A stretch of 64,000 bases of DNA, from positions 15,227-79,226 of the forward strand of contig JAAZBV010000115.1 in assembly GCA_012513605.1 (NCBI GenBank). The letters are read 5' to 3'. Positions 3,410 through 19,120 of the stretch are shown one piece after another. Under the pieces are notes generated by a model. The model saw only the letters and a list, made by a program, of their open reading frames with translations, did no database searches and was not told the DNA's origin. Made by a program: the position numbers and the translations under genes. The stretch comes from Desulfatiglans sp. GTDB taxonomy: Bacteria > Desulfobacterota > DSM-4660 > Desulfatiglandales > HGW-15. How positions within the stretch are numbered: the first letter of the stretch is position 1; each line of letters opens with the position of its first letter.

Positions 3410-4876
3410 ATGAAGGAATTCAAATTGCTGATAAATGGAAAACTGGTTAATGCATTATCCGGTAAGAGATATCCGGTCATCAATCCCGCAAATGAAGAAA
3501 CATTTACAGATCTGCCTCTCGGGGGAATAGATGAGGTTAACATGGCAGTTAAAGCGGCTGGCTCGGCCTTCCCCATATGGTCAAAAGTCCCTATATCCGA
3601 AAGATGCAGGTTCGTAAAAGAAATCGCAACGGGCATAAGGGAAAATGCAGACGAGCTTGCACAACTTGATACCCTTGATCATGGCACTCCGGCAAAAATG
3701 GCATTTCACATGGCAATGGCCTCTGCTTCGTGTCTTGATTTTGCGGCTGAAGCAGCAAGAACTATGATGAGTGAGATGATCCCGGCGTCCAGTAATACCC
3801 TCACATACACCAGAAAAGAGCCTGTCGGAGTTGTTGCGCTTATCACCCCATGGAATGCACCCTTAATGATGATCTGTGATAAACTCGGCGGAATCCTGGC
3901 AACAGGCAACACCTGTATTATAAAGCCGCCAAGTATTGATTCCCTTGAGGCCCTGAAGCTTGCTGAAATTATCTCTAAAGTAAATCTTCCTCCAGGAACT
4001 GTAAATATAATAACCGGACCAGGCGGATTGGTTGGCAATGCCCTGTCATCACATCCTGATGTCAACATGGTTGCCTTTACCGGCAGTTGTGAAACCGGGA
4101 AGGTAATTTTTGAAAATGCGAGCAGGACAGTAAAGAAAGTCGGCATGGAACTCGGTGGTAAAAACCCCTATATCGTTCTTGAAGATGCTGACTTAGATGT
4201 TGCACTGGATAAAATAGTAAGGTCTCAGTATATAAATACAGGGATGATATGCGCGGCTCCTGGAAGAATATATGTTCATGCAAAAATATATGATGAATTT
4301 ATTAATAGATTCATCGAAGAATCAAAAAAGATAACAGCAGGCAATCCCAATGATGAAAAGACATTCATGGGGCCGGTTGTAAGCGCTGAACACAGGGATA
4401 AGGTAGAAGGGCTTATCAAGTCAGGCATAGAAGAGGGTGCAACCCTTTTGCTCGGCGGAAAGAGACCGACTGATCCTTTACTTGAAAAGGGTTACTATAT
4501 ATTGCCCACGGTGTTCAGCAATGTAACGCAGGAAATGAAGATATACCGTGAAGAGATTTTTGGGCCGGTTGCATGTATTGTGAAATTCTCTTCTGAAGAT
4601 GATGTTATCAGGGCTGCAAATGATAATGCCTTTGGCCTCTGTGCAGCAGTGTTCACTAAAGACACGGCTAAAGGCATCAGGTTTGCCAATGAGATTCAGG
4701 CGGGGACAGTATGGATAAATGAGGGATTAACCGCATCAACCGATCTTCCCTGGGGCGGTTATAAGGAAAGCGGATTCGGAAAGGTAAGCGGGGTAAAGGG
4801 CATTCATGAGTTTACACAGGAAAAACTTGTGTGGATTGACCTGCATGGCGGGAAAATGCAGCAGATGCCGGGCTAA
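3410..4876 (+). CDS. NAD(P)-dependent aldehyde dehydrogenase (ALDH superfamily)
   Basis: MKEFKLLINGKLV..., with ALDH signatures PWNAPL, FTGS..TG, MELGGKNP, catalytic Cys region MICAAPGR, EEIFGPV and PWGGYKESGFG. I prefer ATG 3410 with the AAGGAGAAGG RBS over the GTG at 3383 in the ORF track. Confidence 0.9.
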   Translation: MKEFKLLINGKLVNALSGKRYPVINPANEETFTDLPLGGIDEVNMAVKAAGSAFPIWSKVPISERCRFVKEIATGIRENADELAQLDTLDHGTPAKMAFHMAMASASCLDFAAEAARTMMSEMIPASSNTLTYTRKEPVGVVALITPWNAPLMMICDKLGGILATGNTCIIKPPSIDSLEALKLAEIISKVNLPPGTVNIITGPGGLVGNALSSHPDVNMVAFTGSCETGKVIFENASRTVKKVGMELGGKNPYIVLEDADLDVALDKIVRSQYINTGMICAAPGRIYVHAKIYDEFINRFIEESKKITAGNPNDEKTFMGPVVSAEHRDKVEGLIKSGIEEGATLLLGGKRPTDPLLEKGYYILPTVFSNVTQEMKIYREEIFGPVACIVKFSSEDDVIRAANDNAFGLCAAVFTKDTAKGIRFANEIQAGTVWINEGLTASTDLPWGGYKESGFGKVSGVKGIHEFTQEKLVWIDLHGGKMQQMPG

Positions 4877-5009
4877 TTTCTACAAACATGCCTCTGTGGT
4901 CTTTTTTATCGGGCGGAGACGCAGGTCCGCCCTTACCATAAAAAAAAAATCAAAACTCTTACCAGAAAAATAACCGGATATTGTCAGTCTCATAGAAAAG
5001 CTGAATCTC

Positions 5010-5085
5010 ACACAAAGACACAAAGTCGCAAAGGTAACCACTTAAAATAAGACTGTTTTTCTTGGTGTTCTTTGCGGCTTTGCGT
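5010..5085. repeat. Octamer tandem repeats forming an inverted pair between convergent ALDH genes
   Basis: ACACAAAG ACACAAAG TCGCAAAG (5010-5033), and on the other arm CTTTGCGG CTTTGCGT (5070-5085). The arms are complementary and could form a long imperfect stem-loop. Confidence 0.6.
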
Positions 5086-5150
5086 GATAACTTTCCTCTA
5101 TACAATGTTGTCAATATTGGAAATATACTCTGTTAAAAATAAAATATTTC

Positions 5151-5171
5151 CCTGCGCCTTGCGCCCTCGGC
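5151..5171. repeat. Heptamer tandem repeat immediately 3' of the minus-strand ALDH stop
   Basis: CCTGCGC CTTGCGC CCTCGGC, ending 9 nt before the stop codon at 5180. Confidence 0.5.
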
Positions 5172-5179
5172 CGTTTTAC

Positions 5180-6691
5180 CTACAGCACAATACTGACTGT
5201 CTTCACCTCTGTATGGTAATCTATCGCTGACTTACCATTTTCTCTTCCAATGCCTGACTGCTTGAACCCTCCAAAGGGAAGGTTTGGATCAGGTGGCAGG
5301 GTTGCCCCGTTTATTGTTATCATTCCTGCATTAACCGCTGCAGCGGTCTTGATGGCGTTATTCAGATCCTTTGTCCAGATATTGGCTGCCAGACCATAGT
5401 TTGTGTCATTGGCTTCTGGAATAAGGTCTTCAAGTGTATTAAAAGGCGTTGCTATAAGTACAGGCCCGAATATCTCTTCTCTATAGATTGCTGCCTTTTT
5501 ATCAACATCCACAAATATGGTTGGTCTTACAAAATTGCCGGGCCTGTCTATGCCTTTACCGCCTGTAACAAGCCTTGCGCCTGAATCAATACCCTTCTGC
5601 ATATACTGGAGCACCTTGACCTTCTGTGATGCGTTTATAAGCGGCCCCATCTCATTTTCAGGGTCCATGCCAGGGCCTATCTTCATGGTTTCAGCCCTGT
5701 GCTGGATGGCGCTTACCACCTCATCAAAACGCTTTTTCTGAATAAAGAGCCTTGAACCTGCAACGCAGATCTGGCCGCAGTTGTGATAGACACACATTGA
5801 TGCCTCAAAAGGGGCTGATTTCATATCTGCATCATCAAATATGATGCTCGGTGATTTGCCGCCCAATTCAAGGGAGATACGTGTAAGGTTCTCCATTGCA
5901 GCCTTGGCAATGCTTTTACCCACTTCTGTTGAACCGGTAAATGTAATTTTATTGATCCTCGGGTCAGAAACAAGCCTTGAACCTACTACCCCGCCAGGCC
6001 CCTGCAGAAGATTCACTACCCCGTCCGGCACCCCGGCCTCCTGTAACAGTTCCATGAGTCTGCCTGCTATAAGGGGTGTATCCGAGGCAGGTTTGATGAC
6101 CATTGTGCACCCGGTCGCAATCGCAGGGGCAACCTTGCTAACAAACATGGGCATTGGTGCGTTCCATGGAATAACCGCAGCAACAACACCAACAGGCTGA
6201 CGAAGGGTATATGAAAAAACCTGATCCACATGGGGTAAAAGTGTCATAGGGACAAGGGTTTCACCCGCGATCTTGGTTGCAAGACCAGCATAATATTTGG
6301 AAAAATTGATACCCATCATACAGTGTCCAGGATCAGTTGCGGGCCTGCCCAGATCCATACACTCAATCTGACAGAGCTCCTCACGGTTTTTATCAATAAG
6401 ATCTGCAAATCTGAGGAGTATATCCTGGCGTTCCGCGCCGGTCATCTTTTTCCAGGGAGAGTCATCAAATGCCCTGCGTGCCGCTGTCACAGCCATGTCA
6501 ACATCAGCTATTCCGCTTTTTGATGCATGGGCAACAACTTCATTTGTTGCAGGGTCTTTTTTTTCAAAAGTCTCGCCACCCACCGCGCTCTGCCATTTAC
6601 CATTAATGCAGTTTTTAACTTCCTTTGAAAGGAATGCCTTAACCCTGGGCAATAAATTATATTCCGATACTGATAAAAATTTCTCTGCCAT
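5180..6691 (-). CDS. NAD(P)-dependent aldehyde dehydrogenase (ALDH superfamily), second paralogue
   Basis: 503 aa with PWNAPMPM, FTGSTEVGK, LELGGKSP, catalytic Cys region GQICVAGSR, EEIFGPV and PFGGFKQSGIGRE. AAGGAGAA RBS. Confidence 0.9.
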   Translation of the reverse strand: MAEKFLSVSEYNLLPRVKAFLSKEVKNCINGKWQSAVGGETFEKKDPATNEVVAHASKSGIADVDMAVTAARRAFDDSPWKKMTGAERQDILLRFADLIDKNREELCQIECMDLGRPATDPGHCMMGINFSKYYAGLATKIAGETLVPMTLLPHVDQVFSYTLRQPVGVVAAVIPWNAPMPMFVSKVAPAIATGCTMVIKPASDTPLIAGRLMELLQEAGVPDGVVNLLQGPGGVVGSRLVSDPRINKITFTGSTEVGKSIAKAAMENLTRISLELGGKSPSIIFDDADMKSAPFEASMCVYHNCGQICVAGSRLFIQKKRFDEVVSAIQHRAETMKIGPGMDPENEMGPLINASQKVKVLQYMQKGIDSGARLVTGGKGIDRPGNFVRPTIFVDVDKKAAIYREEIFGPVLIATPFNTLEDLIPEANDTNYGLAANIWTKDLNNAIKTAAAVNAGMITINGATLPPDPNLPFGGFKQSGIGRENGKSAIDYHTEVKTVSIVL

Positions 6692-6791
6692 TTTTTCTCC
6701 TTAATTTTTATTGTTTTTCATTTATTAACAAAATGCAGGTCTTTTAATATCCAGCAGGGGCATGCTTTCCCTTTAAGACAAAATTGACTTT

Positions 6792-6834
6792 GCATATGGG
6801 ATTTTTGATATATCCCATATATCAATTCCGATAC
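6792..6834. promoter_or_regulatory. Candidate tandem operator in the divergent ALDH / Mo-enzyme intergenic region
   Basis: GCATATGGGatttttGATATATCCCATATATCAATTCCGATAC. The core ATATC-aattcc-GATAC lies at 6819-6834, with a possible TTGTAA-N16-TATAAC promoter just downstream. Confidence 0.5.
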
Positions 6835-6919
6835 AACAAGTAAATTTTTTTTGTAAAATAAAAATATTATGTTATAACCCACTGGCTAAGCAAAAAAGCA
6901 GAAAGGAAAATAATAATAA

Positions 6920-9358
6920 ATGACTGATGACGGAATAAAGAAGGTCCGCACCACTACATGGTCAGGGGGACCTGGGTGCCACGGCGGATGCGGTGTTATA
7001 GCCCACATTAAGGATAATAAGCTTGTAAAGATAGAAGGTGACCCGGATCACCCCATGAACAGAGGCAGGCTCTGCTCCAGGTGTCTGGCCATGACACAGA
7101 TTGTGCATCACTCTGAGAGGCTGACAAAGCCCCTTAAACGCATTGGCGAGAGAGGTGAAAACAAATGGCAGGAGATCTCCTGGGATGAGGCATTTGATTA
7201 CATTGAAGAAAAGATGAATAAGATCAAGGCGGAATACGGCCCTGAAAGCATGACCTTTTCAATGGGCACAGGCCGCGATGTTGGGGCCTGGATATGTATG
7301 CTTGCCTATGCTTTCGGCAGCCCGAATGTCTCATTTGCCATGAGCGGAAATGGCTGTTATTCACCCAGGATTGCAGCCACAGAAATAGTTATAGGTGACT
7401 ACTGCATATTTGATGGCGGTCAGTGGTTCCCAAAGGGCCATGACGACCCGGGCTATACGGTCCCTGAATGCATAGTCATATGGGGTTATAATATTCCGGC
7501 TTCATGCCCGGACAATATCTTTGGCCACTGGGTAACAGACCTGATGAAAAAGGGTTCCAAGGTTATCACAATAGACCCGCGCCTGAGTTTTTTTGCATCC
7601 AGGTCAGATAAATGGCTCCCGCTCAGACCAGGTACAGACGGCGCCCTTGCAATGGGCTTTCTGAATATTGTCATAAAGGAAGGGCTTTATGACAGAGACT
7701 TTGTAAAAAAATGGACAAACGCACCACACCTGATCAGACAAGACACAGGTAAGTTATTAAGGGAGATAGATATTGACCCGAAAGGCGATACCAAAAACTT
7801 TGTGGTATGGGATAAAGCCTCATGTAAAACTGTGATATGGGATTCAGGATGCGCTGGCTATAAAGCTGAGGTAGGTGAAGCAGCTCTTGAGGGTGAGTTT
7901 GATATAACCCTTGCCTCCGGTGCAGAAATAAAGACAACAACCGTCTGGACAAAGTTCTGCGCAAGGGCAGCGGAATACCCGGTTGAAAAGGTGGCTCAAA
8001 TCACCTGGCTCAAAGAGAAGGACATAATAGAGGCGGCACACCTGTATGCGAAGAGCAAACCCGCATCCATCCAGTGGGGCCTTGCAATTGATTCCACACC
8101 TGCCGTAACACCCACAGCCACAGCCATTGCCTCATTATGGAGCATTATGGGGAACCTGGATATTCCGGGTGGAAACCCGATTGCGCGATATGCCTATAAT
8201 GCAGTGGCCTATGCTTTGCCCGGCGCTAAAGGGGTAATCAGGCTGGAAGACAAAGAGATGGATAAAAAGCGGATAGGTTATAATGACTATGGCCCGTTCA
8301 GGGAATTCATCTGGAGAACCCAGACCGATAAGATGTTTGAGCAGATATTTACTGAAAAGCCCTACCCTGTTAAAGGTATGTGGCTCCAGTGCTGCAACCT
8401 TATAGGCGGCACAGGGTATGATCCTAAAAAATGGATAGAGGCCCTTAAAAAGCTGGATTTTGTGGCTGTTACCGATATCTTCATGACACCCACATGCCAG
8501 ATGGCTGATATTGTGCTGCCTGCAACATCATTTCTTGAAAAGGACAGCATCAGAAGCTGGTGGGTGCCTTTGCAGACCATTAATAAGGCAATGACAGTAG
8601 ATGAATGCAGGTCGCTTATTGAGATAAATTTTGAGATGGCAAAGAGGTTTGATCCTAACTTCAGATGGAAAACCATTCATGACCTGTTTGACGAGATACT
8701 TGCGCCGTCAGGTATGACATTTAAGGAGTTACAGAAAAAGGGGTGGTCAATACCCCCTGATGGAAACCCCAGCGCGCCATATCATCGACATGAAAGGGGC
8801 CTGTTAAGGCAGGATAAAAATCCCGGGTTCCAGACCCATTCAGGCAAGGTTGAACTCTATTCAACCCTGAGGGAGGAGTGGGGCCTTGACCCCATACCCT
8901 GCTATGAAGAACCCCCATTTACACCCATAAGCAGGCCTGACCTGGCTGAAAAATATCCACTTATCCTATCAACTGGTAGAAGATCACCGGTCTTTTTCCT
9001 ATCGGAACACAGGAACATACCATGGTTAAGGGAGGCTGATCCTGATCCTGTTGTGGAAATCCACCCGGATACTGCAAAATCCCTTGGTATTGAAAACGGT
9101 GAATGGGTATGGGTGGAAAACTGGATGGGCAAATGCAAGCTCAAGGCAAAGGTCACACCTATTGTACCAAGGTGGATGGTAATGGCTGCACACGGCTGGT
9201 GGTTTCCTGAAAAGGAGGGTGCAGAACCTTCGCTTTATGGGATGTGGGATTCCAATATCAACCAGTTAATGCCCATGGGGGCAAACGGAAAAGATGGCCT
9301 TGGTACAATCACAAAGCATCTTTTATGTAAAGTTTACAAGGTGAATGGAGAGGCATAG
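6920..9358 (+). CDS. Cytoplasmic bis-MGD molybdo/tungstopterin oxidoreductase, catalytic subunit (DMSO-reductase superfamily; substrate unknown)
   Basis: 812 aa with no Tat signal. N-terminal Fe-S Cys pattern GPGCHGGCGV...RLCSRC. The size and the C-terminal barrel-like segment (VEIHPDTAKSLGIENGEWVWVEN..GKCKLKAKV) are typical of the family. Confidence 0.8.
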   Translation: MTDDGIKKVRTTTWSGGPGCHGGCGVIAHIKDNKLVKIEGDPDHPMNRGRLCSRCLAMTQIVHHSERLTKPLKRIGERGENKWQEISWDEAFDYIEEKMNKIKAEYGPESMTFSMGTGRDVGAWICMLAYAFGSPNVSFAMSGNGCYSPRIAATEIVIGDYCIFDGGQWFPKGHDDPGYTVPECIVIWGYNIPASCPDNIFGHWVTDLMKKGSKVITIDPRLSFFASRSDKWLPLRPGTDGALAMGFLNIVIKEGLYDRDFVKKWTNAPHLIRQDTGKLLREIDIDPKGDTKNFVVWDKASCKTVIWDSGCAGYKAEVGEAALEGEFDITLASGAEIKTTTVWTKFCARAAEYPVEKVAQITWLKEKDIIEAAHLYAKSKPASIQWGLAIDSTPAVTPTATAIASLWSIMGNLDIPGGNPIARYAYNAVAYALPGAKGVIRLEDKEMDKKRIGYNDYGPFREFIWRTQTDKMFEQIFTEKPYPVKGMWLQCCNLIGGTGYDPKKWIEALKKLDFVAVTDIFMTPTCQMADIVLPATSFLEKDSIRSWWVPLQTINKAMTVDECRSLIEINFEMAKRFDPNFRWKTIHDLFDEILAPSGMTFKELQKKGWSIPPDGNPSAPYHRHERGLLRQDKNPGFQTHSGKVELYSTLREEWGLDPIPCYEEPPFTPISRPDLAEKYPLILSTGRRSPVFFLSEHRNIPWLREADPDPVVEIHPDTAKSLGIENGEWVWVENWMGKCKLKAKVTPIVPRWMVMAAHGWWFPEKEGAEPSLYGMWDSNINQLMPMGANGKDGLGTITKHLLCKVYKVNGEA

Positions 9359-9361
9359 ATA

Positions 9362-9703
9362 ATGGCAAAAAAACCGGAATACGGACTACTGATAGATTAT
9401 GAATACTGCACAGGGTGTTTTGCATGTCAGGTAGCATGCGCTCAGGAATATAAATGGCCGGCAGGCATGGGTGGCATCAGGGTTATTGAGATTGTGGAAA
9501 ATCTCCCCAATGACAAACACTATTTAAAATTCATGCCCATACCGACAGAGTTGTGCATCCTCTGCGCAGGGAGAACAAAGAAGGGGGAAAAGCCTGCATG
9601 CGTTCATCACTGTATGGCAGCATGCATGAAGTATGGAAAGATAGAGGAACTGGCAAAAGAGATTAACAAGCCCAGAATGGTATTGTGGGCGCCAAGGGGG
9701 TAA
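9362..9703 (+). CDS. Small 2x[4Fe-4S] ferredoxin-like subunit of the Mo/W enzyme
   Basis: 113 aa with CTGCFACQVAC and CILC...CVHHCMAAC. The start is 4 nt after the upstream stop. GGAGAGG RBS. Confidence 0.75.
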   Translation: MAKKPEYGLLIDYEYCTGCFACQVACAQEYKWPAGMGGIRVIEIVENLPNDKHYLKFMPIPTELCILCAGRTKKGEKPACVHHCMAACMKYGKIEELAKEINKPRMVLWAPRG

Positions 9704-9794: not shown

Positions 9795-10958
9795 TCAAGT
9801 TCTGCTATAGCGGTCAATGGCAGTCATTGCCTCAATCGCTTTTTCTATGTGTTCATCCGTATTAAACGGTCCCAGACTGAATCTTACTGTCCCCCTTGGA
9901 AATGTCCCGATACCCTCATGAACAAGGGGCGCGCAATGAAGCCCTGTACGGACCGCAATGTTATAATCCGCATCAAGGATAGAACCAGCATCACCGGGGT
10001 CCATCCCCTTAATATTGACTGAGATAAGGGCAACATGGTTTTCATTATTTGCTGCACAGTAGCACTCCACAGTTTCAAGGTTTGACAGGCCATCCCTTAA
10101 CTTTATGAAGAGCTCCATCTCTTTTTTGTGAATTGCCTCCATGCCTCTTTGTTCAATATATTTCAGACCTTCTGACAGACCAATAATACCGATCAGGTTT
10201 ATTGTGCCTGCCTCAAGCCTTTGCGGGTATGTCTCATTATGGATAGGGCTTTCAGAGTCTACCCCTGTGCCGCCAAAACGGGTGGGTTCAATGATAAGAT
10301 CAGGGGATACAGCAAGACCGCCAGTGCCTGTTGGCCCAAGCAGGGATTTATGCCCTGTAAATGCAACAGCGCTGATATTCCAATCCTGCATATTGATTGG
10401 TATTACCCCAGCGCTCTGTGCAGCATCAATTACAAAAGGTACACCTCTCTTTGCACAGATTTCACTGATCTCTTTAATTGGCTGGATAGTCCCAAGCACA
10501 TTAGATACATGGTTAATGAGTACAAGCCTGGTATTCTCTCTTATTGCCTTTGAGATATCATCCAGATCAATAAAACCCTTGGGATCAAAGCCGACCAGAT
10601 CATATGTAATAATGCCGTTTTTCTTCAGGTGATACAGGGGTCTTAATACAGAGTTATGTTCAAGCCTGGTTGATACTACATGATCGCCCGTTTTTAACAT
10701 TCCCTGTAAAACAATATTGATTGCATCTGTGGCGTTTGATGTAAAGATTACCCTTTTTGGATCAGGCGTATTAAACAGGCGGCCAAGCCTTGTCCTTACA
10801 TCGTAAACAATATCATCTGCCTCAAAGGCAAGGTCATAGCTGCCCCTGCCCGGAGAGACCCCTTTTTTTTTGTATAATTCTATCATGCGATCCAGTGCAC
10901 CCACTGGTTTCGGAAAGGTGGTGGCCGCATTATCAAGATAAACAATATCAGGATTCAT
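9795..10958 (-). CDS. Class V PLP-dependent cysteine desulfurase (NifS/CsdA/SufS-like)
   Basis: MNPDIVYLDNAATT..., PLP-Lys motif FTGHKSLLGPTGTGGL and active-site Cys loop RTGLHCAPL. I prefer ATG 10958 (1 nt after the upstream TAA) over TTG 11000. Confidence 0.85.
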   Translation of the reverse strand: MNPDIVYLDNAATTFPKPVGALDRMIELYKKKGVSPGRGSYDLAFEADDIVYDVRTRLGRLFNTPDPKRVIFTSNATDAINIVLQGMLKTGDHVVSTRLEHNSVLRPLYHLKKNGIITYDLVGFDPKGFIDLDDISKAIRENTRLVLINHVSNVLGTIQPIKEISEICAKRGVPFVIDAAQSAGVIPINMQDWNISAVAFTGHKSLLGPTGTGGLAVSPDLIIEPTRFGGTGVDSESPIHNETYPQRLEAGTINLIGIIGLSEGLKYIEQRGMEAIHKKEMELFIKLRDGLSNLETVECYCAANNENHVALISVNIKGMDPGDAGSILDADYNIAVRTGLHCAPLVHEGIGTFPRGTVRFSLGPFNTDEHIEKAIEAMTAIDRYSRT

Positions 10959-10959
10959 T

Positions 10960-11328
10960 TTAGTAACCGGCGCATGACTTGGGGTTGGGTAAACCTGCAA
11001 AGCGGCGGGCGCCTCGTTTTATGCCTCCGGGAAAGAGCCCCTCCATCTCCATAAAACTCATCCCCGTTGCGGCCTTTATATCACGATTCATTGGCGCCCT
11101 GCCGTTGTAAAAATAAAACTCTCTTAAAAACAGTATAATCTTCCACTGTACTTCAGTAAAACTATCCACTCCGTTTTCAGCCCCAAGTATCCCGGCTATC
11201 TCTTCTGTCCAGTCTTCAGGATGCCATATAAAACCCTCATTATCAAAGAGTATCTTTTTTCCGGCAATCTCCCTGTATACCCTGGAGAGATCGCCGGTTA
11301 GCGGTTTTGATCCTTCAAACTGGACCAT
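10960..11328 (-). CDS. TusE/DsrC-family sulfur-carrier-like protein (single C-terminal Cys)
   Basis: ILFDNEGFIWHPEDWTEEIA...FTEVQWKIILFLREFYFYNGRAPMNRDI...LFPGGIKRGARRFAGLPNPKSCAGY. This is the characteristic family pattern with the ..GLP.P..C tail. There is no second Cys 10 residues upstream, so it is TusE-like rather than DsrC proper. Confidence 0.8.
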   Translation of the reverse strand: MVQFEGSKPLTGDLSRVYREIAGKKILFDNEGFIWHPEDWTEEIAGILGAENGVDSFTEVQWKIILFLREFYFYNGRAPMNRDIKAATGMSFMEMEGLFPGGIKRGARRFAGLPNPKSCAGY

Positions 11329-11333
11329 TTTTC

Positions 11334-13988
11334 TTATTTACCTGCCAGGGCCTTTTTTACCTTATCCGGTGTTGCCGGAAGATGGGTTATCCAGACCCCG
11401 CATGCGTCATGAATGGCATTGATCACAGCCGGGGCTGTTGATACCATTGTCATTTCTCCAACACCAATTGAACCTAAAGCGCCCTTTTTACGGGGTGTTT
11501 CAAGTGGGGGTATTATCTCCATCTCAAATGATGTCTTAAATGTCGGGAACTTGAAGGTTACCCAGTCCTTTGTCTCACCATGGATATACTCTTCCCTTAA
11601 AGCATAGCCTACACCCTGATCCATACCGCCCTCAAGCTGTCCTTCCAGGTTGATTGGATGGATAACCGGGCCAGGGTCAACAGATGTGGTCATCCTGATT
11701 ACCTTCACTTCACCTGTCTCTGTATTGACCTCAACCTCTGCCATCTGGATATTGTGAACCTGTGTCTCATATGAGGCGCCCTGCCCTGTCTTGGGATCAA
11801 GTTCTGCAACACGGGTGGTCTTTTTACCAACATACCTGGTGGCCTTTCCCGCCTTCTTCAGACCTTCATATGTTTTGGTTTTAGCCTCTTTCATGGCGGT
11901 AAGCATCTCATTAATACCATTGATCATGGCTCCGCCAACCATGTAGGTGATACGGCTGCTTGCAGCAGGGCCTGTTTCAGAGGTATTTTCAGTTGTCCTT
12001 GTTACAAGCCTTACCTTATTGAGTGGCAGATCAAGAAGATGGGCTGCAAGCTGTGTAAACATGGAGTCGTTTCCTTCCCCGGGGTCAGCAGCGGCAGTGT
12101 ATATTGTTACGCCGTTATCCTCGTTCATCTCAACTACTGCAATGGCGTTGTCACTGGGCATACCGATACCAAAGGAATGGGCGCCAAGACCAACCCCGCG
12201 CCTGATCTTACCTGTCTTTGACTTTGCAGCCTCCTTCTTTGCCCTTTCATAGTGGGGTCTGATCATCTCACAGACCTGCGGGAATGTTGAGTCATCAATG
12301 AGCACCACGCCTGTTGAAAGGCTGTCACCCGGTTTGAGTGAGTTTTTGATCCTGAACTCAAGCGGGTCCATGCCTATCTTTTCCGCCAGCATATCCATGG
12401 CGCATTCAAGGGCAAAATTTACCTGGGGTGGCCCTGCGCCGCGCGCTGCCCCGCCTGCCGCATCGTTTGTGTAAACGAGTTTTGCCATTGCTTCAATATT
12501 GGGGATATTGTATGCCCCCGAAAACATTTCTATAGAGCGCCCGACAACAATTATGCCCAGTAGCATATATGCGCCGTTATTAATTATGAAGTCATTTGCA
12601 TATGCGGTGAGGTGGCCATCTTTATCAGCGGCAAGCTTTACCTTCATTTCAAATGGATGACGTTTGTTGCTCAGTAGCATGGATTCATGAATGCTCGGGA
12701 TATACCTTACAGGCCTCTTGAAATGCAATGCAGCAGCGCCTGATATGCCTTCAGTGGTGATGGATGCCTTGATCCCGAACTGACCGCCTGAATATGGCTC
12801 CTCATACCTCATGTTTTCATACCCCAGCCCCTCCTGGAGGGCCGCCATATGGGTATGGATCATGATGCTTCTGCCTGAAACAACAAGGATCGGGTCTTCA
12901 TCCCCCTCAAGCCATGCTACAGTTGTTTCCGGCTCAAGAGGTGCCTGATGATTCATCTGGGTTGAAAAATCACATTCAACCACTGCTTTCGCCTCTTTAA
13001 ATGCCTTTGCTGCATCGCCCCTTATCTGTGGTTGCTGATAAACAAGGTTAGGAAATTCATCATGCACCCTCACATCATCCCTTGCCATTGCCTCCTTAAC
13101 GGTCTTAAGCACAGGCAGTTTCTCATATACAACCTTTACTGCATCGGCTGCAGCGAGTGCCTGTTTCAGGGTCTCAGCCGCAACTATCACGATCGGGTCA
13201 CCAAGGGTCCTGACCTTTTTATCACAGAGGATCGGCTGGTCATTAAATATAAATCTCAATCTGTTGGTGCCCTTTATGTCTTTTGCGGTCATTGTGCCGA
13301 TAACCCCTGGCATCTTATCCGCAACAGAAGTATCAATGGATATTATCTTTGCGTGTTCTTCAATGCTTCTTACAACAGCAAGCTCAAGCGCCCCTTCAGG
13401 ATAGATGTCTGCGCCAAACTGTGCCACACCGCATGCCTTTATCATTGCTGATGGGCGCGGGTGAGATACACCCAGTTTGGGGCCATCAGGGTCGGGACGA
13501 ACCTGATCAGGCGTAAGCTCACCTTTAAGAAATTTGGCAGAGAGTTTTACCGCATCAAATATCTTCCTGTACCCTGTACAGCGACAGAGGTTTCTTGCAA
13601 GGGCCTTTTTTATATCATCATCAGTCGGGTCAGGGTTCTGATCAAGCAATACCTTTGTTGCCATGATCATTCCCGGTGTACAAAAACCGCATTGAATGGC
13701 GCCTGAAAGTACAAATGCCTCCTGGATAAGATGGGGATTGTCCGGGGTGCCCAGCCCTTCAATGGTAATTACATCAGCGTCCTGAAGATTGGCGACCTTT
13801 GTTATACAGGATTTCACAGCCTTTTTGTTGACTATTACCGTGCAGGCGCCGCACTGCACCTTCCTGTCACACGACTGCTTCGTACCGGTAAGATGCATGT
13901 CTTCACGAAGCAGATCAAGCAGCGTCTTATCAGGTTCAACAACAAACTGATACGGCCTCCCATTGATTTTTAATGATACTTTTTGCAT
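11334..13988 (-). CDS. Mop-type aldehyde oxidoreductase (xanthine-oxidase family; fused 2x[2Fe-2S] + Moco domains, no FAD domain), paralogue 1
   Basis: 884 aa. N-terminus GTKQSCDRKVQCGACTV...QCGFCTPGMIM...LCRCTGY carries both [2Fe-2S] motifs. Canonical C-terminal active-site loop GSIGVGEMTMVSTAPAVINAI. The overall layout matches my recollection of the Desulfovibrio gigas MOP sequence. Confidence 0.9.
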   Translation of the reverse strand: MQKVSLKINGRPYQFVVEPDKTLLDLLREDMHLTGTKQSCDRKVQCGACTVIVNKKAVKSCITKVANLQDADVITIEGLGTPDNPHLIQEAFVLSGAIQCGFCTPGMIMATKVLLDQNPDPTDDDIKKALARNLCRCTGYRKIFDAVKLSAKFLKGELTPDQVRPDPDGPKLGVSHPRPSAMIKACGVAQFGADIYPEGALELAVVRSIEEHAKIISIDTSVADKMPGVIGTMTAKDIKGTNRLRFIFNDQPILCDKKVRTLGDPIVIVAAETLKQALAAADAVKVVYEKLPVLKTVKEAMARDDVRVHDEFPNLVYQQPQIRGDAAKAFKEAKAVVECDFSTQMNHQAPLEPETTVAWLEGDEDPILVVSGRSIMIHTHMAALQEGLGYENMRYEEPYSGGQFGIKASITTEGISGAAALHFKRPVRYIPSIHESMLLSNKRHPFEMKVKLAADKDGHLTAYANDFIINNGAYMLLGIIVVGRSIEMFSGAYNIPNIEAMAKLVYTNDAAGGAARGAGPPQVNFALECAMDMLAEKIGMDPLEFRIKNSLKPGDSLSTGVVLIDDSTFPQVCEMIRPHYERAKKEAAKSKTGKIRRGVGLGAHSFGIGMPSDNAIAVVEMNEDNGVTIYTAAADPGEGNDSMFTQLAAHLLDLPLNKVRLVTRTTENTSETGPAASSRITYMVGGAMINGINEMLTAMKEAKTKTYEGLKKAGKATRYVGKKTTRVAELDPKTGQGASYETQVHNIQMAEVEVNTETGEVKVIRMTTSVDPGPVIHPINLEGQLEGGMDQGVGYALREEYIHGETKDWVTFKFPTFKTSFEMEIIPPLETPRKKGALGSIGVGEMTMVSTAPAVINAIHDACGVWITHLPATPDKVKKALAGK

Positions 13989-14079: not shown

Positions 14080-14343
14080 TTATAACTTCAGATCATTCCG
14101 GCGTATTTCATGAGCCAGGATATTAATAGCCTTTTCGTATGATCTAATAACCAATGTCTCTGGAGAATTTTTGAGTACCTGTCTCGATATGGGGCATGTT
14201 GTGTTATGGAGAAAGTCAGTTAATATATCCCCTGCCATGTCATTCAGATATTCGACTGTTCTATAGCATCGGATCATTATCTCCTCTTCCTTTTCCCCAG
14301 ATAGGTCCAGTGCTTTTATGCCCTTCTTCTTAAACTCTTCCAT
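14080..14343 (-). CDS. Hypothetical 87-aa protein, first gene of the Mop-1 transcription unit
   Basis: GAGG RBS 7 nt upstream; 92 nt upstream of mop paralogue 1; sits directly behind the tandem operator. I recognise no family. Confidence 0.5.
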   Translation of the reverse strand: MEEFKKKGIKALDLSGEKEEEIMIRCYRTVEYLNDMAGDILTDFLHNTTCPISRQVLKNSPETLVIRSYEKAINILAHEIRRNDLKL

Positions 14344-14523: not shown

Positions 14524-14922
14524 TTGGATAACAGTGAAAAAAATCAATCAGCAAGAAAAAAAATCACCCGTGAAGAGATGGATGAGATAGTGTCAAAGGC
14601 ACGCCGTGCTCAGGAAGACAAGATGAAGGGGTACCGTGAGAAATCATTATCTATCCATCCCTGGGTGTGCGCCCGCTGCGGAATGGAATTTACCCAGAAA
14701 AATCTTCATCTTTTGACAGTGCACCATAGAGATCATGATCATGATAATAATCCGCCTGATGGAAGCAACTGGGAAAACCTGTGCGTATACTGTCATGATA
14801 ATGAACACAGGAGATACACTGATCACCTTCAGGGTGAAATGCCTGATTCAGGGGCAGTAAAATCCGAAACTGTTACACATAAGCCCTTTGCAGCCCTTGC
14901 AGATCTGCTTAAAAAAAAATAA
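14524..14922 (+). CDS. yajD: YajD-family HNH nuclease
   Basis: GYREKSLSIHPWVCARCG...LTVHHRDHDHDNNPPDGSNWENLCVYCHDNEH closely parallels E. coli YajD as I remember it. The start is uncertain (TTG 14524 or ATG 14578). Confidence 0.8.
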   Translation: MDNSEKNQSARKKITREEMDEIVSKARRAQEDKMKGYREKSLSIHPWVCARCGMEFTQKNLHLLTVHHRDHDHDNNPPDGSNWENLCVYCHDNEHRRYTDHLQGEMPDSGAVKSETVTHKPFAALADLLKKK

Positions 14923-14949: not shown

Positions 14950-16245
14950 GTGACTAATATAATTAACAACACTCATAGTGTCTGTCCGGTATGTCTAAAA
15001 AGAATCCCTGCAATAATAACAAAACATGGCAATGATTATTTCATGGAGAAATCCTGTGAGGATCATGGAGATTTTTCAGTTGTAATCTGGCGGGGAGACG
15101 ACATTCCGCTTACGAAATGGGGAAATTACAAGCCCCCGGAACATGAAAATAATCCTTCTGATTGTCCTGGATCATGCGGACTCTGTTCAGGGCATCTGCA
15201 AAAGACCTGCTGCGCACTGGTGGAGATCACTGATCGATGCAATCTAAACTGCCCCATATGTTTTGCTCAAAGCGGTGGTTTCTCCCATGACCCTGCTATT
15301 TCAGATATTTCGGATCAGTTTAAAGAGCTTGTAAAAAATGGGAACACCTTTGTGCAGATTTCCGGTGGTGAACCGACTGTGAGGGATGATCTGCCGGATA
15401 TTGTAGCAGCAGCAAGAGATGCAGGGTGTGAAAACATACAACTGAATTCAAACGGGATCAGGCTTGGCCAGGATAAGGGATTTACTAAGGCCCTTGCTAA
15501 GGCAGGCATTTCCTTTGTTTTTATGCAGTTTGACGGCACAGAAGAGGCCATTTATGAAAGGCTCAGGGGGAGGCCGCTTTTAGCCGAGAAACAAGCGGCA
15601 ATTGAGGCATGTTCCAATGAACTGATCGGCGTAACCCTTGTCCCTACACTGGTGCCAGGCATTAATGATCATAACATAGGAGAGATACTGAAATTTGGGT
15701 TTAACCATTCCCCTGCGGTGAGAGGGGTTCATTTTCAGCCTGTTAGTTATTTCGGTCGTTACCCCCTTCCTCCTGAAGATAAAGACAGGATCACCCTCCC
15801 TGAGGTTTTACACCTGATAGAGAAGCAGACAGAGGGAGTAGTAAATATCACGGATTTTCTTCCATCAGCATGCGATCATCCGAGATGCGGTTTTCATGGT
15901 GATTTTGTGGTTTTACCCGAAGGGCTGATGAAGCTTACGAAAAGGAGCAACAGTAATGCATGCTGCCCTTCTGACGGGACAGAGCATCTTAAAAACAGGA
16001 ATTTTGTCTCCAGAAGGTGGAAACGCACTGCCGCACAAAACATCGTGGACGAAAACGGGAACAATGGGAAAAGCGACTTTGATCTTTTTCTCAAACAGGT
16101 TGAGACCCATGGTTTTACTATTACTGCGATGGCATTTCAGGATGCCTATACCCTTGATATTGAGCGGTTACGCAGATGCAGCCTTCATGTTTATAAAGAT
16201 GGTAAGACCATTCCCTTTTGTGCTAGGTACCTGACAAAAGGATAA
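14950..16245 (+). CDS. Radical SAM enzyme with N-terminal Zn-ribbon (COG1964-like; MJ0619 / GDGT-MAS clade by recollection)
   Basis: GTG start with AGGAG RBS. Features: HSVCPVCLKRIPA...CEDHG; CPGSCGLCSGH; radical-SAM box DRCNLNCPICF; SGGEPT; C-terminal ITAMAFQDAYTLDIERLRRCSLHV...IPFCARY. Confidence 0.8.
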   Translation: MTNIINNTHSVCPVCLKRIPAIITKHGNDYFMEKSCEDHGDFSVVIWRGDDIPLTKWGNYKPPEHENNPSDCPGSCGLCSGHLQKTCCALVEITDRCNLNCPICFAQSGGFSHDPAISDISDQFKELVKNGNTFVQISGGEPTVRDDLPDIVAAARDAGCENIQLNSNGIRLGQDKGFTKALAKAGISFVFMQFDGTEEAIYERLRGRPLLAEKQAAIEACSNELIGVTLVPTLVPGINDHNIGEILKFGFNHSPAVRGVHFQPVSYFGRYPLPPEDKDRITLPEVLHLIEKQTEGVVNITDFLPSACDHPRCGFHGDFVVLPEGLMKLTKRSNSNACCPSDGTEHLKNRNFVSRRWKRTAAQNIVDENGNNGKSDFDLFLKQVETHGFTITAMAFQDAYTLDIERLRRCSLHVYKDGKTIPFCARYLTKG

Positions 16246-16249
16246 AGCT

Positions 16250-17068
16250 ATGGCTAAAGAGAATCATTCAAATGAAATCACCGCTCCTGAAGCTGATAAT
16301 CAATGTTGTCCTACAGAAACAGGCAGCATTATAGGCATATATAAATCAGGCTGCCTTGTTTGCGGTGCGCCCCTTATCTATTACTGGAAAAATAAAGAAA
16401 GCAGATGCTGTTTTTGTGGAGAAATTTTACAGGCTAATGCCGGGTGCCCTGTTGGTCATTTTGTATGCGATAAATGCCACAGCGCAGATGTAATAGAGAT
16501 CATTAAAAATGTCTGCCTGCAGAGCCGGGAGAGTAACATGGTAAAGCTTATGCAGGCCATACGATCGCACCCCCTGTTCAAGATGCACGGACCGGAACAC
16601 CATTCCATGGTACCGGCTGTTATACTCACCGCCCTTAAAAACAGAGGGGAACAGATTACAGATGATGATATAGTGACGGCAATTGAGAGAGGGAAGACGG
16701 TCTGCGGCGGGGCATGTGCAATTTTAGGCGCATGCGGCGCTGCAATTGGTGCAGGCATTGCAATATCAATAGTACTGAAAGCGAGCCCCAATGATGGAGG
16801 AAAAAGACAGGCTGTTCAGCAGGCCACACAGAGGGTGCTTGCAAGAATAGCATCATTTAAGGCTCCGCGTTGCTGCCAGAGAGACTCATGGCTGGCATTG
16901 AAGGAGGCTTCAGCTATCATAAATGAAATAACCGGAAAATCTTTACCGGTATATTCTTTTAAATGTGAACAGTTACAGGAAAACAGGGAATGCATCCATG
17001 AGCATTGTCCGCTGTGGCCCGGTATTCGTGACTCCCTTAAAGGCGGGAATCCAGAATTTTACGTTTAA
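16250..17068 (+). CDS. Cys-rich protein, C-GCAxxG-C-C-like (putative redox-active; DVU_1555-like by recollection)
   Basis: 272 aa. N-terminal Zn-ribbon-like Cys pairs (CLVCGAP...CCFCG...CDKCH), HGPEHH, CGGACAILGACGAAIGAGIA, then RCCQRD. The start is 5 nt after the radical SAM stop. Confidence 0.55.
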   Translation: MAKENHSNEITAPEADNQCCPTETGSIIGIYKSGCLVCGAPLIYYWKNKESRCCFCGEILQANAGCPVGHFVCDKCHSADVIEIIKNVCLQSRESNMVKLMQAIRSHPLFKMHGPEHHSMVPAVILTALKNRGEQITDDDIVTAIERGKTVCGGACAILGACGAAIGAGIAISIVLKASPNDGGKRQAVQQATQRVLARIASFKAPRCCQRDSWLALKEASAIINEITGKSLPVYSFKCEQLQENRECIHEHCPLWPGIRDSLKGGNPEFYV

Positions 17069-18341
17069 GTGTACCGGTTGTAAAATAATCGACATCACCT
17101 TCTTCAACATATAAAATCAGGCCCTCTTCCTTGAACAGAGAGGGTAGCTCCATTTTTATCCTGCGAATCAGAGCCTCCGGATCAGAAGGGCCGCTTGCCG
17201 GTTTAACAATAATTCGCAGACAGTCACGTCCATTCACAGTTTGAAGCTCTGCGCCATATGTCAGTATTGATGGTTCTTTGCACAATATTTCATCGAGCTG
17301 GGTAATAGAGAGGATGTTCCCGTCTGCGAGCATTAGAGGTTCTGCGAACCTGCCTGTGATGCGATCCAGACGCCTGAGTAGTGTGCCGCAGGGACACTTA
17401 TCAACTAGAAACCTTGCTCTGTCTCCTGTCCTGTATCTTATAAGCGGCATGCCCTGCCGCGTTAGCGTGGAAAACACCACCTCACCATATTCGCCCTCCT
17501 GTACCTGAAAAGCGCTTACAGGGTCTATTACCTCAAATAGGAGATCTGACTCACGCAGGTGATACCCCTCACCTGCATCACACGCCACACCTCCGCCAAG
17601 GCCCATTTCAGTCATACCATAATGCTCGTATAGGGTTGCTCCCCAGGCCTTTTTAATCACACTGGCAGCAGAGAGAGGGACATAGTCCGCGCTAAGCAGG
17701 ACGCTTTTAAGTGATATCCTGTAGTTACTGTTTTCACTCATACGGGCAATGGATAGAATCTGGGCGGGTATCCCTACCATGCAGGTGATTTTCTCCTTAA
17801 CGATCATGTCCAGTGCGTGTGTGTTATCTTTTATTGGGCCGTATACGATGCTTTTACAACCAAAACGGGCAAGGCCGCGTTTAAGCAGGTCGCCAACACT
17901 GCCTTCAGTCCCCCCAGGCATAAAGATCATGACAATATCGTGTTCATCGGTCATCGTCATCATGCCGTGATGAAAAAAATCCATGGTGACCTCCTGATCC
18001 TCATTTGTAAAAAAAACCCGTTTAGGCATCCCGGTTGTGCCTGATGTCCCCAATGTAACGATGCGTCCTACTTCCCTGGGAGACACACACAAAAAACCTT
18101 CTGGGTCTGATGCAATATCATCAGGTGTTGTCAATGGCAGACGGGTGATATCCGCCATATCACGGATATCAGAGGGATTAATTTCTGCCAGATGCTTCCT
18201 ATAAAAGCGGCTGTTCTTTTTTACATTAGTAAGGGTTTCACGTAATTTTTCAAGCTGGTATTCATGCAGCCTTTTCAGATCAAGTCGTCCGGGGATATTG
18301 ATTTTATTCGCTATCCATTTATCTAAAGGGGTCATATTCAT
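17037..18341 (-). CDS. Adenylate-forming ligase, phenylacetate-CoA ligase / F390-synthetase-like (PaaK family)
   Basis: AMP-binding motif TSGTTGMPKRVFFT, YGMTEMG, RYRTGD. I prefer ATG 18341 over TTG 18374. The 3' end overlaps the convergent gene by 32 nt. Confidence 0.8.
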   Translation of the reverse strand: MNMTPLDKWIANKINIPGRLDLKRLHEYQLEKLRETLTNVKKNSRFYRKHLAEINPSDIRDMADITRLPLTTPDDIASDPEGFLCVSPREVGRIVTLGTSGTTGMPKRVFFTNEDQEVTMDFFHHGMMTMTDEHDIVMIFMPGGTEGSVGDLLKRGLARFGCKSIVYGPIKDNTHALDMIVKEKITCMVGIPAQILSIARMSENSNYRISLKSVLLSADYVPLSAASVIKKAWGATLYEHYGMTEMGLGGGVACDAGEGYHLRESDLLFEVIDPVSAFQVQEGEYGEVVFSTLTRQGMPLIRYRTGDRARFLVDKCPCGTLLRRLDRITGRFAEPLMLADGNILSITQLDEILCKEPSILTYGAELQTVNGRDCLRIIVKPASGPSDPEALIRRIKMELPSLFKEEGLILYVEEGDVDYFTTGTLKRKILDSRL

Positions 18342-18351
18342 AGGTAGCAGA

Positions 18352-19056
18352 TTATCTCTCCACTTTCCTGGCAATAATCAGGCGATAACAGTGATCAGAG
18401 ATCTTGAATCCCCCTGCAAACCTGTTACAGATGAACCAGCTAGCATCACAGGCACCACCAAATTTCTCAGAGAGCTCTGCTGCATAGGTGATAAGCGCAG
18501 GGGTATGATCCTCGCTTACATCTATATTAAACCCTGCCTCAGCGAGCCTTGATTCAAGCCATGTGAAAAGGGGCAAAGAGGAATTTTGTGCCTCTTGCCT
18601 TGAAAAGATGTCAGATATAATAAGTTTTCCCTTGCTACTGAGCGCGCTATAACATTCATCAACCAATCTTTCGCTAAAGCCCATCACCGATAGCGAACAC
18701 TCAAATAAAGCGGCATCAAGGCTCTGCGACTCAAAAGGTAGCTTTTTCCCATCCCGATGAATGAGGTTAAGGCCAGGGTTTTTGCTGAGTCCGATACAGA
18801 TGAGCGGCCCGGAGATATCGAGCCCGGTCATTAAGAGTCCGTATTTCCAGGTAAGATAGGCCGCTGTGGTCCCTGCGCCGCAGCCTATATCAGCCACCTT
18901 CATCCCTTTATGAAGCCCGGCCAGCCTTATGGCCCTGTCAGTCAGCCTTAGCCCGCCGGGATGCATTGAGTGATCATTCAGAAGAGAGAATTCTTCGGAT
19001 TCGTAGATATTATTCATTTCCGTTTGGTGTGTGGACTGTCGGATTTTTATTTTCAT
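18352..19056 (-). CDS. Class I SAM-dependent methyltransferase with an extra C-terminal domain
   Basis: SAM motif I VADIGCGAGTTAAYL, then LDIS..., GKLIISD. The start is uncertain (ATG 19056 with a GGAAGA RBS, or TTG 19077). Confidence 0.75.
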   Translation of the reverse strand: MKIKIRQSTHQTEMNNIYESEEFSLLNDHSMHPGGLRLTDRAIRLAGLHKGMKVADIGCGAGTTAAYLTWKYGLLMTGLDISGPLICIGLSKNPGLNLIHRDGKKLPFESQSLDAALFECSLSVMGFSERLVDECYSALSSKGKLIISDIFSRQEAQNSSLPLFTWLESRLAEAGFNIDVSEDHTPALITYAAELSEKFGGACDASWFICNRFAGGFKISDHCYRLIIARKVER

Positions 19057-19120
19057 ACTGCTATTCTTCCGGAACAAAAGGGATGACCTTCTCTATTTAG
19101 TCTTTGATTAAAATGCCTTT

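Follow-up and report, generated by a model that had tools for sequence, protein, structure and literature searches.

A conserved gene module couples a clade of MOP-type molybdoenzymes to a DsrC-family protein and a cysteine desulfurase: a candidate sulfur relay

Introduction

A 64,000-nucleotide stretch of a Desulfatiglans sp. genome (GenBank assembly GCA_012513605.1, contig JAAZBV010000115.1, positions 15,227 to 79,226 of the forward strand), hereafter the window, holds three closely spaced genes encoding a molybdoenzyme of the aldehyde oxidoreductase (MOP) type, here called Mop1, a small single-cysteine protein of the DsrC family, here called the carrier, and a cysteine desulfurase. Why should two sulfur-handling proteins be encoded with a molybdoenzyme? 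The original prediction was that sulfur passes from the desulfurase through the carrier to Mop1 and there sulfurates the molybdenum cofactor (Moco). Our preferred answer, to which we give about an even chance, is that the three genes form a self-contained, co-inherited module, a dedicated persulfide relay that serves one xanthine-oxidase-family clade in the installation or repair of the sulfido ligand.

Most members of the xanthine-oxidase family need a terminal sulfido ligand on molybdenum (Mo=S), and the sulfido ligand of formate dehydrogenases (FDH) is made by FdhD with IscS. Type II cysteine desulfurases normally need a dedicated acceptor protein. In the DsrAB-DsrC complex the C-terminal arm of DsrC carries sulfur into a buried active site. 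Maturation factors for xanthine-oxidase-family enzymes are usually encoded together with their target, as in xdhABC and paoABCD (PMC2997495). A 2026 review of Moco sulfuration names neither DsrC, TusE nor TusA, and it still calls unknown how the terminal sulfido reaches the buried molybdenum centre. Our searches of open-access literature returned no paper linking a DsrC/TusE-family protein or a sulfur relay with a xanthine-oxidase-family enzyme, in keeping with the earlier statement that no such route was known for Mop-type enzymes.

Results

Gene organization of the locus

The three genes and their main features are located in the window as follows.

11334-13988, minus strand: Mop1, 884 amino acids (aa), from open reading frame (ORF) calling and Pfam/NCBIfam
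11329-11333, minus strand: 5-nt gap from the stop codon of Mop1 to the ATG of the carrier
10960-11328, minus strand: DsrC-family carrier, 122 aa, with a single C-terminal Cys
10972-10974, minus strand: codon of carrier Cys119, its sole Cys, equivalent to CysA of DsrC and the proposed persulfide site
10959, minus strand: 1-nt gap from the stop codon of the carrier to the ATG of the desulfurase
9795-10958 (from the ATG), minus strand: predicted type II (SufS-like) cysteine desulfurase dependent on pyridoxal phosphate (PLP), 387 aa, TIGR01977
10347-10349, minus strand: codon of the desulfurase PLP-binding Lys204
9933-9935, minus strand: codon of the desulfurase catalytic Cys342
14080-14343, minus strand: orf87, a small ORF 91 nt upstream of Mop1

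Three genes separated by 5 and 1 nt had been described at this locus, and the ORFs reproduced that description to the nucleotide. The two gaps hold with ATG as the desulfurase start. With a TTG start the desulfurase ORF would cover 9795-11000, and the in-frame ATG at 10958 gives the 387-aa protein; this ATG is backed by alignments of orthologues, which begin there, and by the gene calls of the Joint Genome Institute (JGI). These independent JGI calls, made on an identical metagenome contig, returned the same genes of 884, 122 and 387 aa. The junctions read GGT AAA TAA gaaaa ATG between Mop1 and the carrier and GGT TAC TAA a ATG between the carrier and the desulfurase. The genes had also been called translationally coupled; the close spacing stands, and coupling itself is suggested by that spacing and by the lack of an obvious Shine-Dalgarno sequence rather than observed. 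An Rfam scan returned no RNA in the vicinity of the operon, Moco riboswitches included, and promoter and terminator scans at the operon gave nothing above shuffled expectation.

Conservation of the three-gene module

A homology search with the carrier returned 107 proteins of about 120 aa, at least 52% identical to it. Patterns drawn from the carrier alignment were then used to scan one genome per species for 185,579 species, and 244 carrier relatives were confirmed in these species-representative genomes. From these 244 we fetched 80 loci and typed the neighbouring genes by tblastn with the window proteins. Phyla and taxa of the loci, metagenome-assembled genomes included, are labels from the record titles, and intergenic distances outside the window are approximate, as they depend on estimated start codons.

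Conservation of the mop, TusE-like and csd linkage had been proposed as a check on the original prediction, and the linkage passed it strongly. The carrier had a same-strand Mop1-type gene as its immediate upstream neighbour in 76 of the 78 loci with sufficient upstream sequence, and the desulfurase as its immediate downstream neighbour in 72 of the 76 with sufficient downstream sequence. Recurring in 72 to 76 of 76 to 78 informative loci, the arrangement is far beyond chance. The flanking Mop1-type gene was about 55-95% identical to Mop1 in most loci. Spacing was tight at both junctions, with a median gap of 7 nt between Mop1 and carrier (at most 30 nt in 61 of 75 loci) and of 9 nt between carrier and desulfurase (at most 30 nt in 62 of 69 loci); the 1-nt gap at the second junction was present in seven of the loci (L001-L007).

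The loci span about six phyla. Most are of Desulfobacterota type, including Desulfatiglandales, Syntrophorhabdus, Syntrophobacter, Desulfosarcina, Desulfarculia and others, while Bacillota account for 11 loci and Chloroflexota, Actinomycetes, Acidobacteriota and Leptospirales for a few. Cultured strains among the 80 loci include Desulfosarcina variabilis, Desulfocicer vacuolatum, Desulfotruncus arcticus and Desulfocucumis palustris. Pairwise distance matrices of the three proteins were correlated with one another (r = 0.78-0.79, Mantel p = 0.001), i.e. Mop1, carrier and desulfurase co-evolve.

Exceptions to the full trio were few. Four loci had Mop1 and carrier without the desulfurase, one of them (L063) in a genome that also holds a full trio, and two had the carrier without Mop1: L013, where the desulfurase was present, and L037, where the contig ends too soon after the carrier to show whether a desulfurase follows. 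Since the exceptions mostly lose the desulfurase (four loci against two without Mop1), the Mop1-carrier pair is the tightest link. Five genomes carried two copies of the module (L063 and L025, L056 and L064, L024 and L031, L048 and L054, L036 and L069), with the two Mop1 copies 72-95% identical to each other; one of these genomes had the desulfurase at one copy only and another at neither copy.

Clustering of all ORFs in the 80 loci gave no further real gene family in more than 13 loci, and the larger leftover clusters were antisense shadow ORFs within Mop1 and the desulfurase. With no other family widely conserved beside it, the trio is the entire conserved unit. The commonest true neighbours were aldehyde dehydrogenases (11 loci), an FDH-like protein (10-11 loci) and ABC ATPases (9 loci), followed by acyl-CoA ligases; transporters were also present, and tungsten aldehyde oxidoreductase (AOR), sigma-54 regulators and CoxM-like subunits occurred occasionally. 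The surroundings of the trio are therefore varied and mostly aldehyde- or aromatic-catabolic. The small orf87 had homologues in only 8 loci, all of the closest relatives, where it mostly lies directly upstream of Mop1 (downstream of the desulfurase in L028). It has no Pfam or NCBIfam match and may or may not belong to the gene unit.

Genes of related pathways were also sought. None of the window ORFs scanned held an XdhC-type domain (PF02625, PF13478), and no XdhC-like family was conserved beside the trio in the 80 loci, both in agreement with the earlier remark that no XdhC-like gene is visible here. SelD, YqeB and YqeC were found neither among the conserved neighbours in the 80 loci nor among the window ORFs. 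TusBCD, MnmA, DsrAB and DsrEFH did not occur as conserved neighbours of the module, and no gene for IscU, SufBCD, SufU or MoaD/MoeB was conserved in it. The loci also lacked a conserved electron-transfer partner gene for Mop1, unlike those of classical MOP.

The carrier protein

By its hidden Markov model (HMM) matches, its fold and its CysA, the carrier belongs to the DsrC/TusE/DsvC family. It matched PF04358 (DsrC) with 83.4 bits (cut-off 24.9) and TIGR03342 with 62.8 bits (cut-off 53.5), and it stayed far below the cut-off of the TusE equivalog NF008562 (41.4 bits against 191). The carrier profile matched DsrC chains with E-values of 1e-26 to 1e-19 and the TusE-like structure 7SYB with 9e-9. 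An AlphaFold2 model (pLDDT 82.8, with low confidence at the N-terminus and in the last few residues) found its best Foldseek matches in the DsrC chains of DsrAB complexes, with a TM score of 0.88 and 35-37% identity, compared with 21% identity to 7SYB. The carrier had been labelled TusE-like, and this label has to be given up, as profile E-value, fold match and identity all place it closer to true DsrC. In the model a disordered N-terminus is predicted to precede the DsrC fold, which is followed by a flexible C-terminal arm with GLPNPKSCAGY at its end.

The carrier C-terminus reads RRFAGLPNPKSCAGY, also given as AGLPNPKSCAGY, and the protein has exactly one Cys, C119; the tail and single Cys described earlier were thus both recovered. 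This tail Cys, in the motif GLPNPKxC, was invariant in 34 of 34 aligned homologues and shared by all 107 proteins found, and GLPNP[KR]xC was present in 79 of the 79 family members at the loci.

In DsrC a second cysteine, CysB, lies 10 residues upstream of CysA on the C-terminal arm. When the arms were aligned, DsrC read GACKMAGLPKPTGCV and the carrier family GARRxAGLPNPKxC, which lacks the second Cys that marks bona fide DsrC. The CysB position is an Arg in 78 of the 79 members, and 57 of the 79 have only one Cys. With CysB replaced by Arg, the two-cysteine chemistry of DsrC is impossible for the carrier. It could nevertheless carry a persulfide. We also considered a DsrC-like protein acting as a redox-active electron acceptor for Mop1, an idea that was rejected on the grounds of the single Cys.

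Long proteins matching the carrier profile were inspected separately. One metagenome protein (P0408, 357 aa) looked like a carrier-desulfurase fusion and proved to be a frameshift product without the GLPNPKxC tail, i.e. an artefact or a pseudogene. The other long matches were unrelated DsrC-family repeats or fusions. Tandem duplications of about 220 aa are common among DsrC-family proteins in public data (P0383, P0389-P0392 and others) and lie outside the subfamily studied here; one protein has five DsrC domains (541 aa), and others are fused to unrelated N-terminal regions.

The cysteine desulfurase

The motifs GHKSLLGP and RTGLHCAPL, reported earlier for the desulfurase, are both present, the first within FTGHKSLLGP. 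They contain Lys204 and Cys342, which align with the PLP-binding Lys and the catalytic Cys of SufS-type structures; the best match in the Protein Data Bank (PDB) was the SufS-like 5B7S, with HK and HCA aligned, and 8D8S could be aligned as well. Both motifs are kept in 72 orthologues. A single Aminotran_5 domain (residues 6-373) spans the protein end to end, with no extra domain.

The desulfurase aligned over its full length with TIGR01977 (459.7 bits, cut-off 377). Scores were lower against the SufS (273.6 bits), IscS (158.8 bits) and NifS (156.9 bits) models, and 335.4 bits against the SclA model NF040779 fell below its cut-off of 525. These comparisons assign the protein to the type II (SufS/CsdA-like) desulfurases, closer to SufS than to IscS or NifS. 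The former label NifS/CsdA-like did not hold at the level of the family, which is TIGR01977 (EF2568/SclA) and neither NifS nor CsdA. TIGR01977 is named after Enterococcus faecalis EF2568, now SclA, a selenocysteine lyase (PMC2276186; bioRxiv 10.1101/2020.02.07.939272), and membership in it opens a selenium alternative that is weighed below.

Mop1 and the clade specificity of the link

Mop1 contains the Pfam domains Fer2 (PF00111), Fer2_2 (PF01799), hammerhead (PF01315), MoCoBD_1 (PF02738) and MoCoBD_2 (PF20256), that is, two [2Fe-2S] domains, a hammerhead domain and two Moco-binding domains, with no FAD domain. This composition classes it with the xanthine-oxidase family and its single-chain MOP-type architecture. 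It aligned over its full length with the aldehyde oxidoreductase of D. gigas (DgAOR; PDB 1SIJ, 1VLB) at about 38% identity. Its eight Fe-S cysteines (C40, 46, 49, 61, 100, 103, 135 and 137) align with those of DgAOR and are invariant in 60 clade members, as are Arg516 (DgAOR Arg533) and the catalytic Glu845 (DgAOR Glu869), found in 60 of 60.

In other respects Mop1 departs from DgAOR. Its score on NF045668, the DgAOR-type equivalog, was 806 bits and so fell short of the cut-off (1100), and its second-best NCBIfam match was the model for selenium-dependent xanthine dehydrogenase (XDH), TIGR03311 (538 bits, cut-off 830). Eighty-five positions are invariant in the Mop1 clade and different in DgAOR and in Mop2, a second MOP-type enzyme encoded in the window. 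Among them, invariant Ala515 and Ala518 stand where DgAOR has Phe532 and Tyr535, the aromatics flanking the active-site Arg; further clade substitutions relative to DgAOR are His653Pro and Gln655Glu. Because Ala replaces both aromatics beside the Arg, the active-site floor of Mop1 is probably differently shaped and more open. Mop1 appears on these grounds to found a clade distinct from D. gigas AOR, and gene context makes a cytoplasmic aldehyde or aromatic-compound oxidoreductase its most likely role. Our table of Mop1 homologues covered the best 120 matches, all at least 66% identical; for the limits of the association, classical MOP contexts and Mop2 were therefore used as the outgroup.

Features of the window that bear on this comparison and on the alternatives below are the following.

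21750-24578, minus strand: Mop2, a D. gigas-type aldehyde oxidoreductase (NF045668, 1152 bits, cut-off 1100)
14950-21627: Mop2 accessory genes
31186-31279, plus strand: selenocysteine tRNA (tRNA-Sec) gene (Rfam RF01852, 73.6 bits)

Mop2 is 44% identical to DgAOR and is followed by genes for an NF045663 oxidoreductase, a DVU_1557-family protein, a DVU_1556-type methyltransferase (152.4 bits, cut-off 155), a DVU_1553-type AMP ligase, TrsS and a DUF5714 protein. Essentially the same accessory set follows MOP in D. gigas, Desulfobacter curvatus and Nitratidesulfovibrio termitidis, with a C_GCAxxG_C_C protein in place of the DUF5714 protein in all three. No DsrC-family or class V aminotransferase gene was found near Mop2 or at these three classical MOP loci. 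TrsS at Mop2 is a radical SAM (seleno)protein, and the DUF5714 protein is MbdU-like.

Discussion

Proposed mechanism and points against it

In the relay that we favour, the desulfurase would take sulfur from L-cysteine and hold it as a persulfide on Cys342, a step to which its family membership and intact motifs point. Cys119, on the carrier's flexible C-terminal arm, would receive the persulfide sulfur, and this arm, by analogy with the arm of DsrC in DsrAB, would enter the substrate funnel of Mop1 and bring the sulfur to the molybdenum centre. A terminal sulfido would there be installed, or re-installed after its loss (Mo=O to Mo=S), in maturation or repair. Desulfurase and carrier would in this way do the job of XdhC with NifS4, or of ABA3/MOCOS, without a Moco-binding chaperone and possibly on the assembled enzyme. 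The route is the one originally predicted, from desulfurase to carrier to Mop; conserved linkage now speaks for it, its general ligand premise and its TusE and NifS/CsdA labels have fallen away, and the individual transfer steps and Mo=S as the target are our reconstruction.

Several points weigh against this relay. To our knowledge, proteins of the DsrC/TusE type receive their sulfur from DsrEFH or TusBCD and not directly from a desulfurase. The module is without a Moco-binding chaperone, and an XdhC gene could lie elsewhere in the genomes that bear it. Comparison of the carrier profile with 1.84 billion representative proteins gave no natural fusion of the carrier to Mop1 or to the desulfurase. 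Almost all Mop1 copies have a carrier to themselves, and mostly a desulfurase too, within an operon of tight spacing, and for this reason a stoichiometric partner fits at least as well as a one-off maturation factor. Bacterial sulfuration is moreover thought to occur while Moco is bound to XdhC, ahead of its insertion, and repair in situ is not known (PMC13653126). Finally, DgAOR is active with an oxo ligand and has been reported to do without a sulfido ligand (PMC3877041, PMC10223205).

DgAOR is the nearest characterised homologue of Mop1 and, within its family, a documented exception. For DgAOR itself, the premise of a sulfido ligand needed by Mop-type enzymes accordingly fails; Mop1, at its low identity and below the equivalog cut-off, stands apart from that type. 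The exception sharpens the hypothesis, because Mop2, the true D. gigas-type paralogue, has no partner genes. The sulfido-independent DgAOR type is without sulfur partners while the divergent Mop1 clade has them, and the link is clade-specific.

Alternative explanations

The pattern of one carrier per Mop1 in a tight operon also suits a reading that we consider unlikely but take seriously, in which the carrier takes part in catalysis as a stoichiometric partner. The persulfide (or perselenide) on its Cys119, renewed by the lyase, would enter the Mop1 funnel in every cycle as a Mo ligand or sulfur donor, re-sulfurating molybdenum each time or serving itself as ligand or substrate. An aldehyde or heterocycle might then receive sulfur from Mop1 and become a thiocarboxylate or thione, or Mop1 might take cysteine-derived sulfane sulfur for its co-substrate. 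The precedent is the ergothioneine synthase MES, fused to a cysteine desulfurase, for which the proposal is that the substrate uses up Mo(VI)=S and a protein persulfide renews it, and whose authors suggest that other uncharacterised mononuclear molybdenum enzymes may sulfurate heterocycles (PMC9516567). The invariant Ala residues in place of two aromatics at the substrate pocket are compatible with such a reaction, as is the lack of a conserved electron-transfer partner gene of the kind that classical MOP has. MES, however, is of the dimethyl sulfoxide (DMSO) reductase family, and sulfur transfer is not known from any xanthine-oxidase-family enzyme. Mop1 keeps, as an invariant residue, the catalytic Glu that is typical of hydroxylation, and the neighbouring genes (aldehyde dehydrogenases, tungsten AOR, acyl-CoA ligases, transporters) are catabolic rather than biosynthetic. 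If true, this reading would make the module the xanthine-oxidase-family counterpart of MES. The element delivered might instead be selenium, taken from selenocysteine by the lyase, held as a perselenide on the carrier Cys and placed as a terminal Mo=Se in a selenium-dependent hydroxylase, which we think improbable. The founding member of TIGR01977, EF2568/SclA, is a selenocysteine lyase and is encoded beside selD, a TusA-like protein and a selenium-dependent XDH of Mop architecture (PMC2276186; bioRxiv 10.1101/2020.02.07.939272); Mop1 has the selenium-dependent XDH model as its second-best match, and the organism uses selenium, as the tRNA-Sec gene in the window indicates. Both relevant cut-offs were nonetheless missed (335 against 525 for the SclA model and 538 against 830 for TIGR03311), and no SelD, YqeB or YqeC family is conserved near the module. 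Sequence does not discriminate sulfur from selenium for this class of enzyme: in the SclA study the candidate residue H100 did not set the specificity (bioRxiv 10.1101/2020.02.07.939272), and the choice between the two elements cannot be read from it.

Linkage to Mop1, however strong, is equally compatible with another sulfur need of the same enzyme, namely its two [2Fe-2S] clusters, the dithiolene sulfurs of molybdopterin (MPT) or the reductive reactivation of an oxidised dithiolene. Cysteine desulfurases feed both Fe-S and molybdopterin synthesis, and inactive DgAOR is reactivated by dithionite and sulfide through dithiolene chemistry rather than resulfuration (PMC3877041). Yet classical MOP has the same clusters and cofactor type without a carrier/desulfurase pair, no Fe-S scaffold (IscU, SufBCD, SufU) or MoaD/MoeB gene is conserved in the module, and we know of no DsrC-family protein that donates sulfur to Fe-S clusters or MPT; we hold this explanation to be a poor prospect. 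Poorer still, and in our view hardly credible, is the absence of any direct functional link, with carrier and desulfurase engaged in general sulfur trafficking (e.g. tRNA thiolation) or acting as a regulator. It could appeal to the generic database names "tRNA 2-thiouridine synthesizing protein E", "DsrC1" and "IscS3", and to the two loci with a carrier and no Mop1, one of which (L013) has the desulfurase. It has to contend with adjacency to Mop1 in 76 of 78 loci across phyla, with the co-evolution of the three proteins, with two module copies in each of five genomes, and with a carrier that misses the TusE equivalog (41 bits, cut-off 191) and has no TusBCD or MnmA neighbours.

Comparison with known systems

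All parts of the module belong to known families and Moco sulfuration is a known process; what is new is the combination and the route that it implies. The closest functional likeness is to XdhC with NifS4 for Rhodobacter capsulatus XDH, and to PaoD for Escherichia coli PaoABC, where the target is again a xanthine-oxidase-family enzyme, sulfur comes from L-cysteine through a desulfurase persulfide, and the maturation factor is system-specific and encoded with its target (PMC13653126, PMC2997495). The module differs in having a single-Cys carrier of the DsrC family, with no XdhC chaperone in the module itself, in the window ORFs scanned or across the 80 loci, and in having its type II (TIGR01977) desulfurase in the same tight gene cluster as the proposed target. 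Eukaryotic ABA3/MOCOS likewise uses a SufS-like desulfurase domain to provide Mo=S on xanthine-oxidase-family enzymes, and ABA3 may do so once the enzyme is assembled (PMC13653126). In ABA3 a single polypeptide also bears a MOSC-type Moco-binding domain at its C-terminus, whereas the module desulfurase is an aminotransferase class V domain only and has a separate partner.

The carrier shares its fold, and CysA in a related AGLP.P..C motif, with DsrC of DsrAB-DsrC and with TusE of the E. coli Tus relay. It differs from them in the replacement of CysB by Arg (78 of 79), in the absence of DsrAB, DsrEFH, TusBCD and MnmA neighbours and in having a molybdoenzyme as its partner. DgAOR, from Megalodesulfovibrio gigas, has the same single-chain architecture as Mop1, which keeps its eight Fe-S cysteines, Arg533 and Glu869; Mop1 is set apart by about 38% identity and 85 clade-specific positions, and DgAOR-type genes come with another accessory cluster.

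A TIGR01977 lyase, a small relay protein and a hydroxylase of Mop architecture are also found together in the selenium-hydroxylase cluster of E. faecalis (SclA/EF2568, SelD, the TusA-like EF2566 and XDH EF2570; PMC2276186). The carrier of the module is of DsrC type and not of TusA type, SelD, YqeB and YqeC are missing, and neither the SclA nor the selenium-dependent XDH model reached its cut-off. MES of Caldithrix abyssi resembles the module in being a pterin molybdenum or tungsten enzyme physically coupled to its own cysteine desulfurase, with Mo=S proposed to be regenerated by a persulfide (PMC9516567). [quoted passage not shown]

The module is a compact three-protein system in which gene order defines donor, carrier and target, with no linked XdhC. 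If the relay proposed here is correct, it would add to XdhC/NifS4 and ABA3 a third way of sulfurating Moco, and the DsrC fold would gain a function beyond sulfite reduction and the thiolation of tRNA. In anaerobes the "Mop" genes would fall into at least two classes by their maturation needs, one of them probably sulfido-dependent. Widespread annotations as "TusE", "DsrC1" and "IscS3" would also be corrected, such as those in the genome record of Desulfosarcina variabilis, where a Mop1 gene is accompanied by "DsrC1: sulfite reductase gamma subunit" and "IscS3".

Other content of the window

An aldehyde-related neighbourhood (3383-9703) lies convergent with the desulfurase gene and contains the following genes.

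3383-4876, plus strand: aldehyde dehydrogenase
5180-6691, minus strand: aldehyde dehydrogenase
6920-9358: bis-MGD molybdopterin oxidoreductase, 812 aa (best match PhsA-like, below the cut-off)
9362-9703: small 4Fe-4S protein

Housekeeping content occupies 14524-14922 (plus strand), 25899-30623, 35394-42429, 42825-45959 and 55204-63953. These genes encode a YajD-family HNH nuclease, BipA/TypA, anaerobic ribonucleotide reductase with its activase, a V-type ATPase operon, Mla lipid-transport proteins and flagellar proteins.

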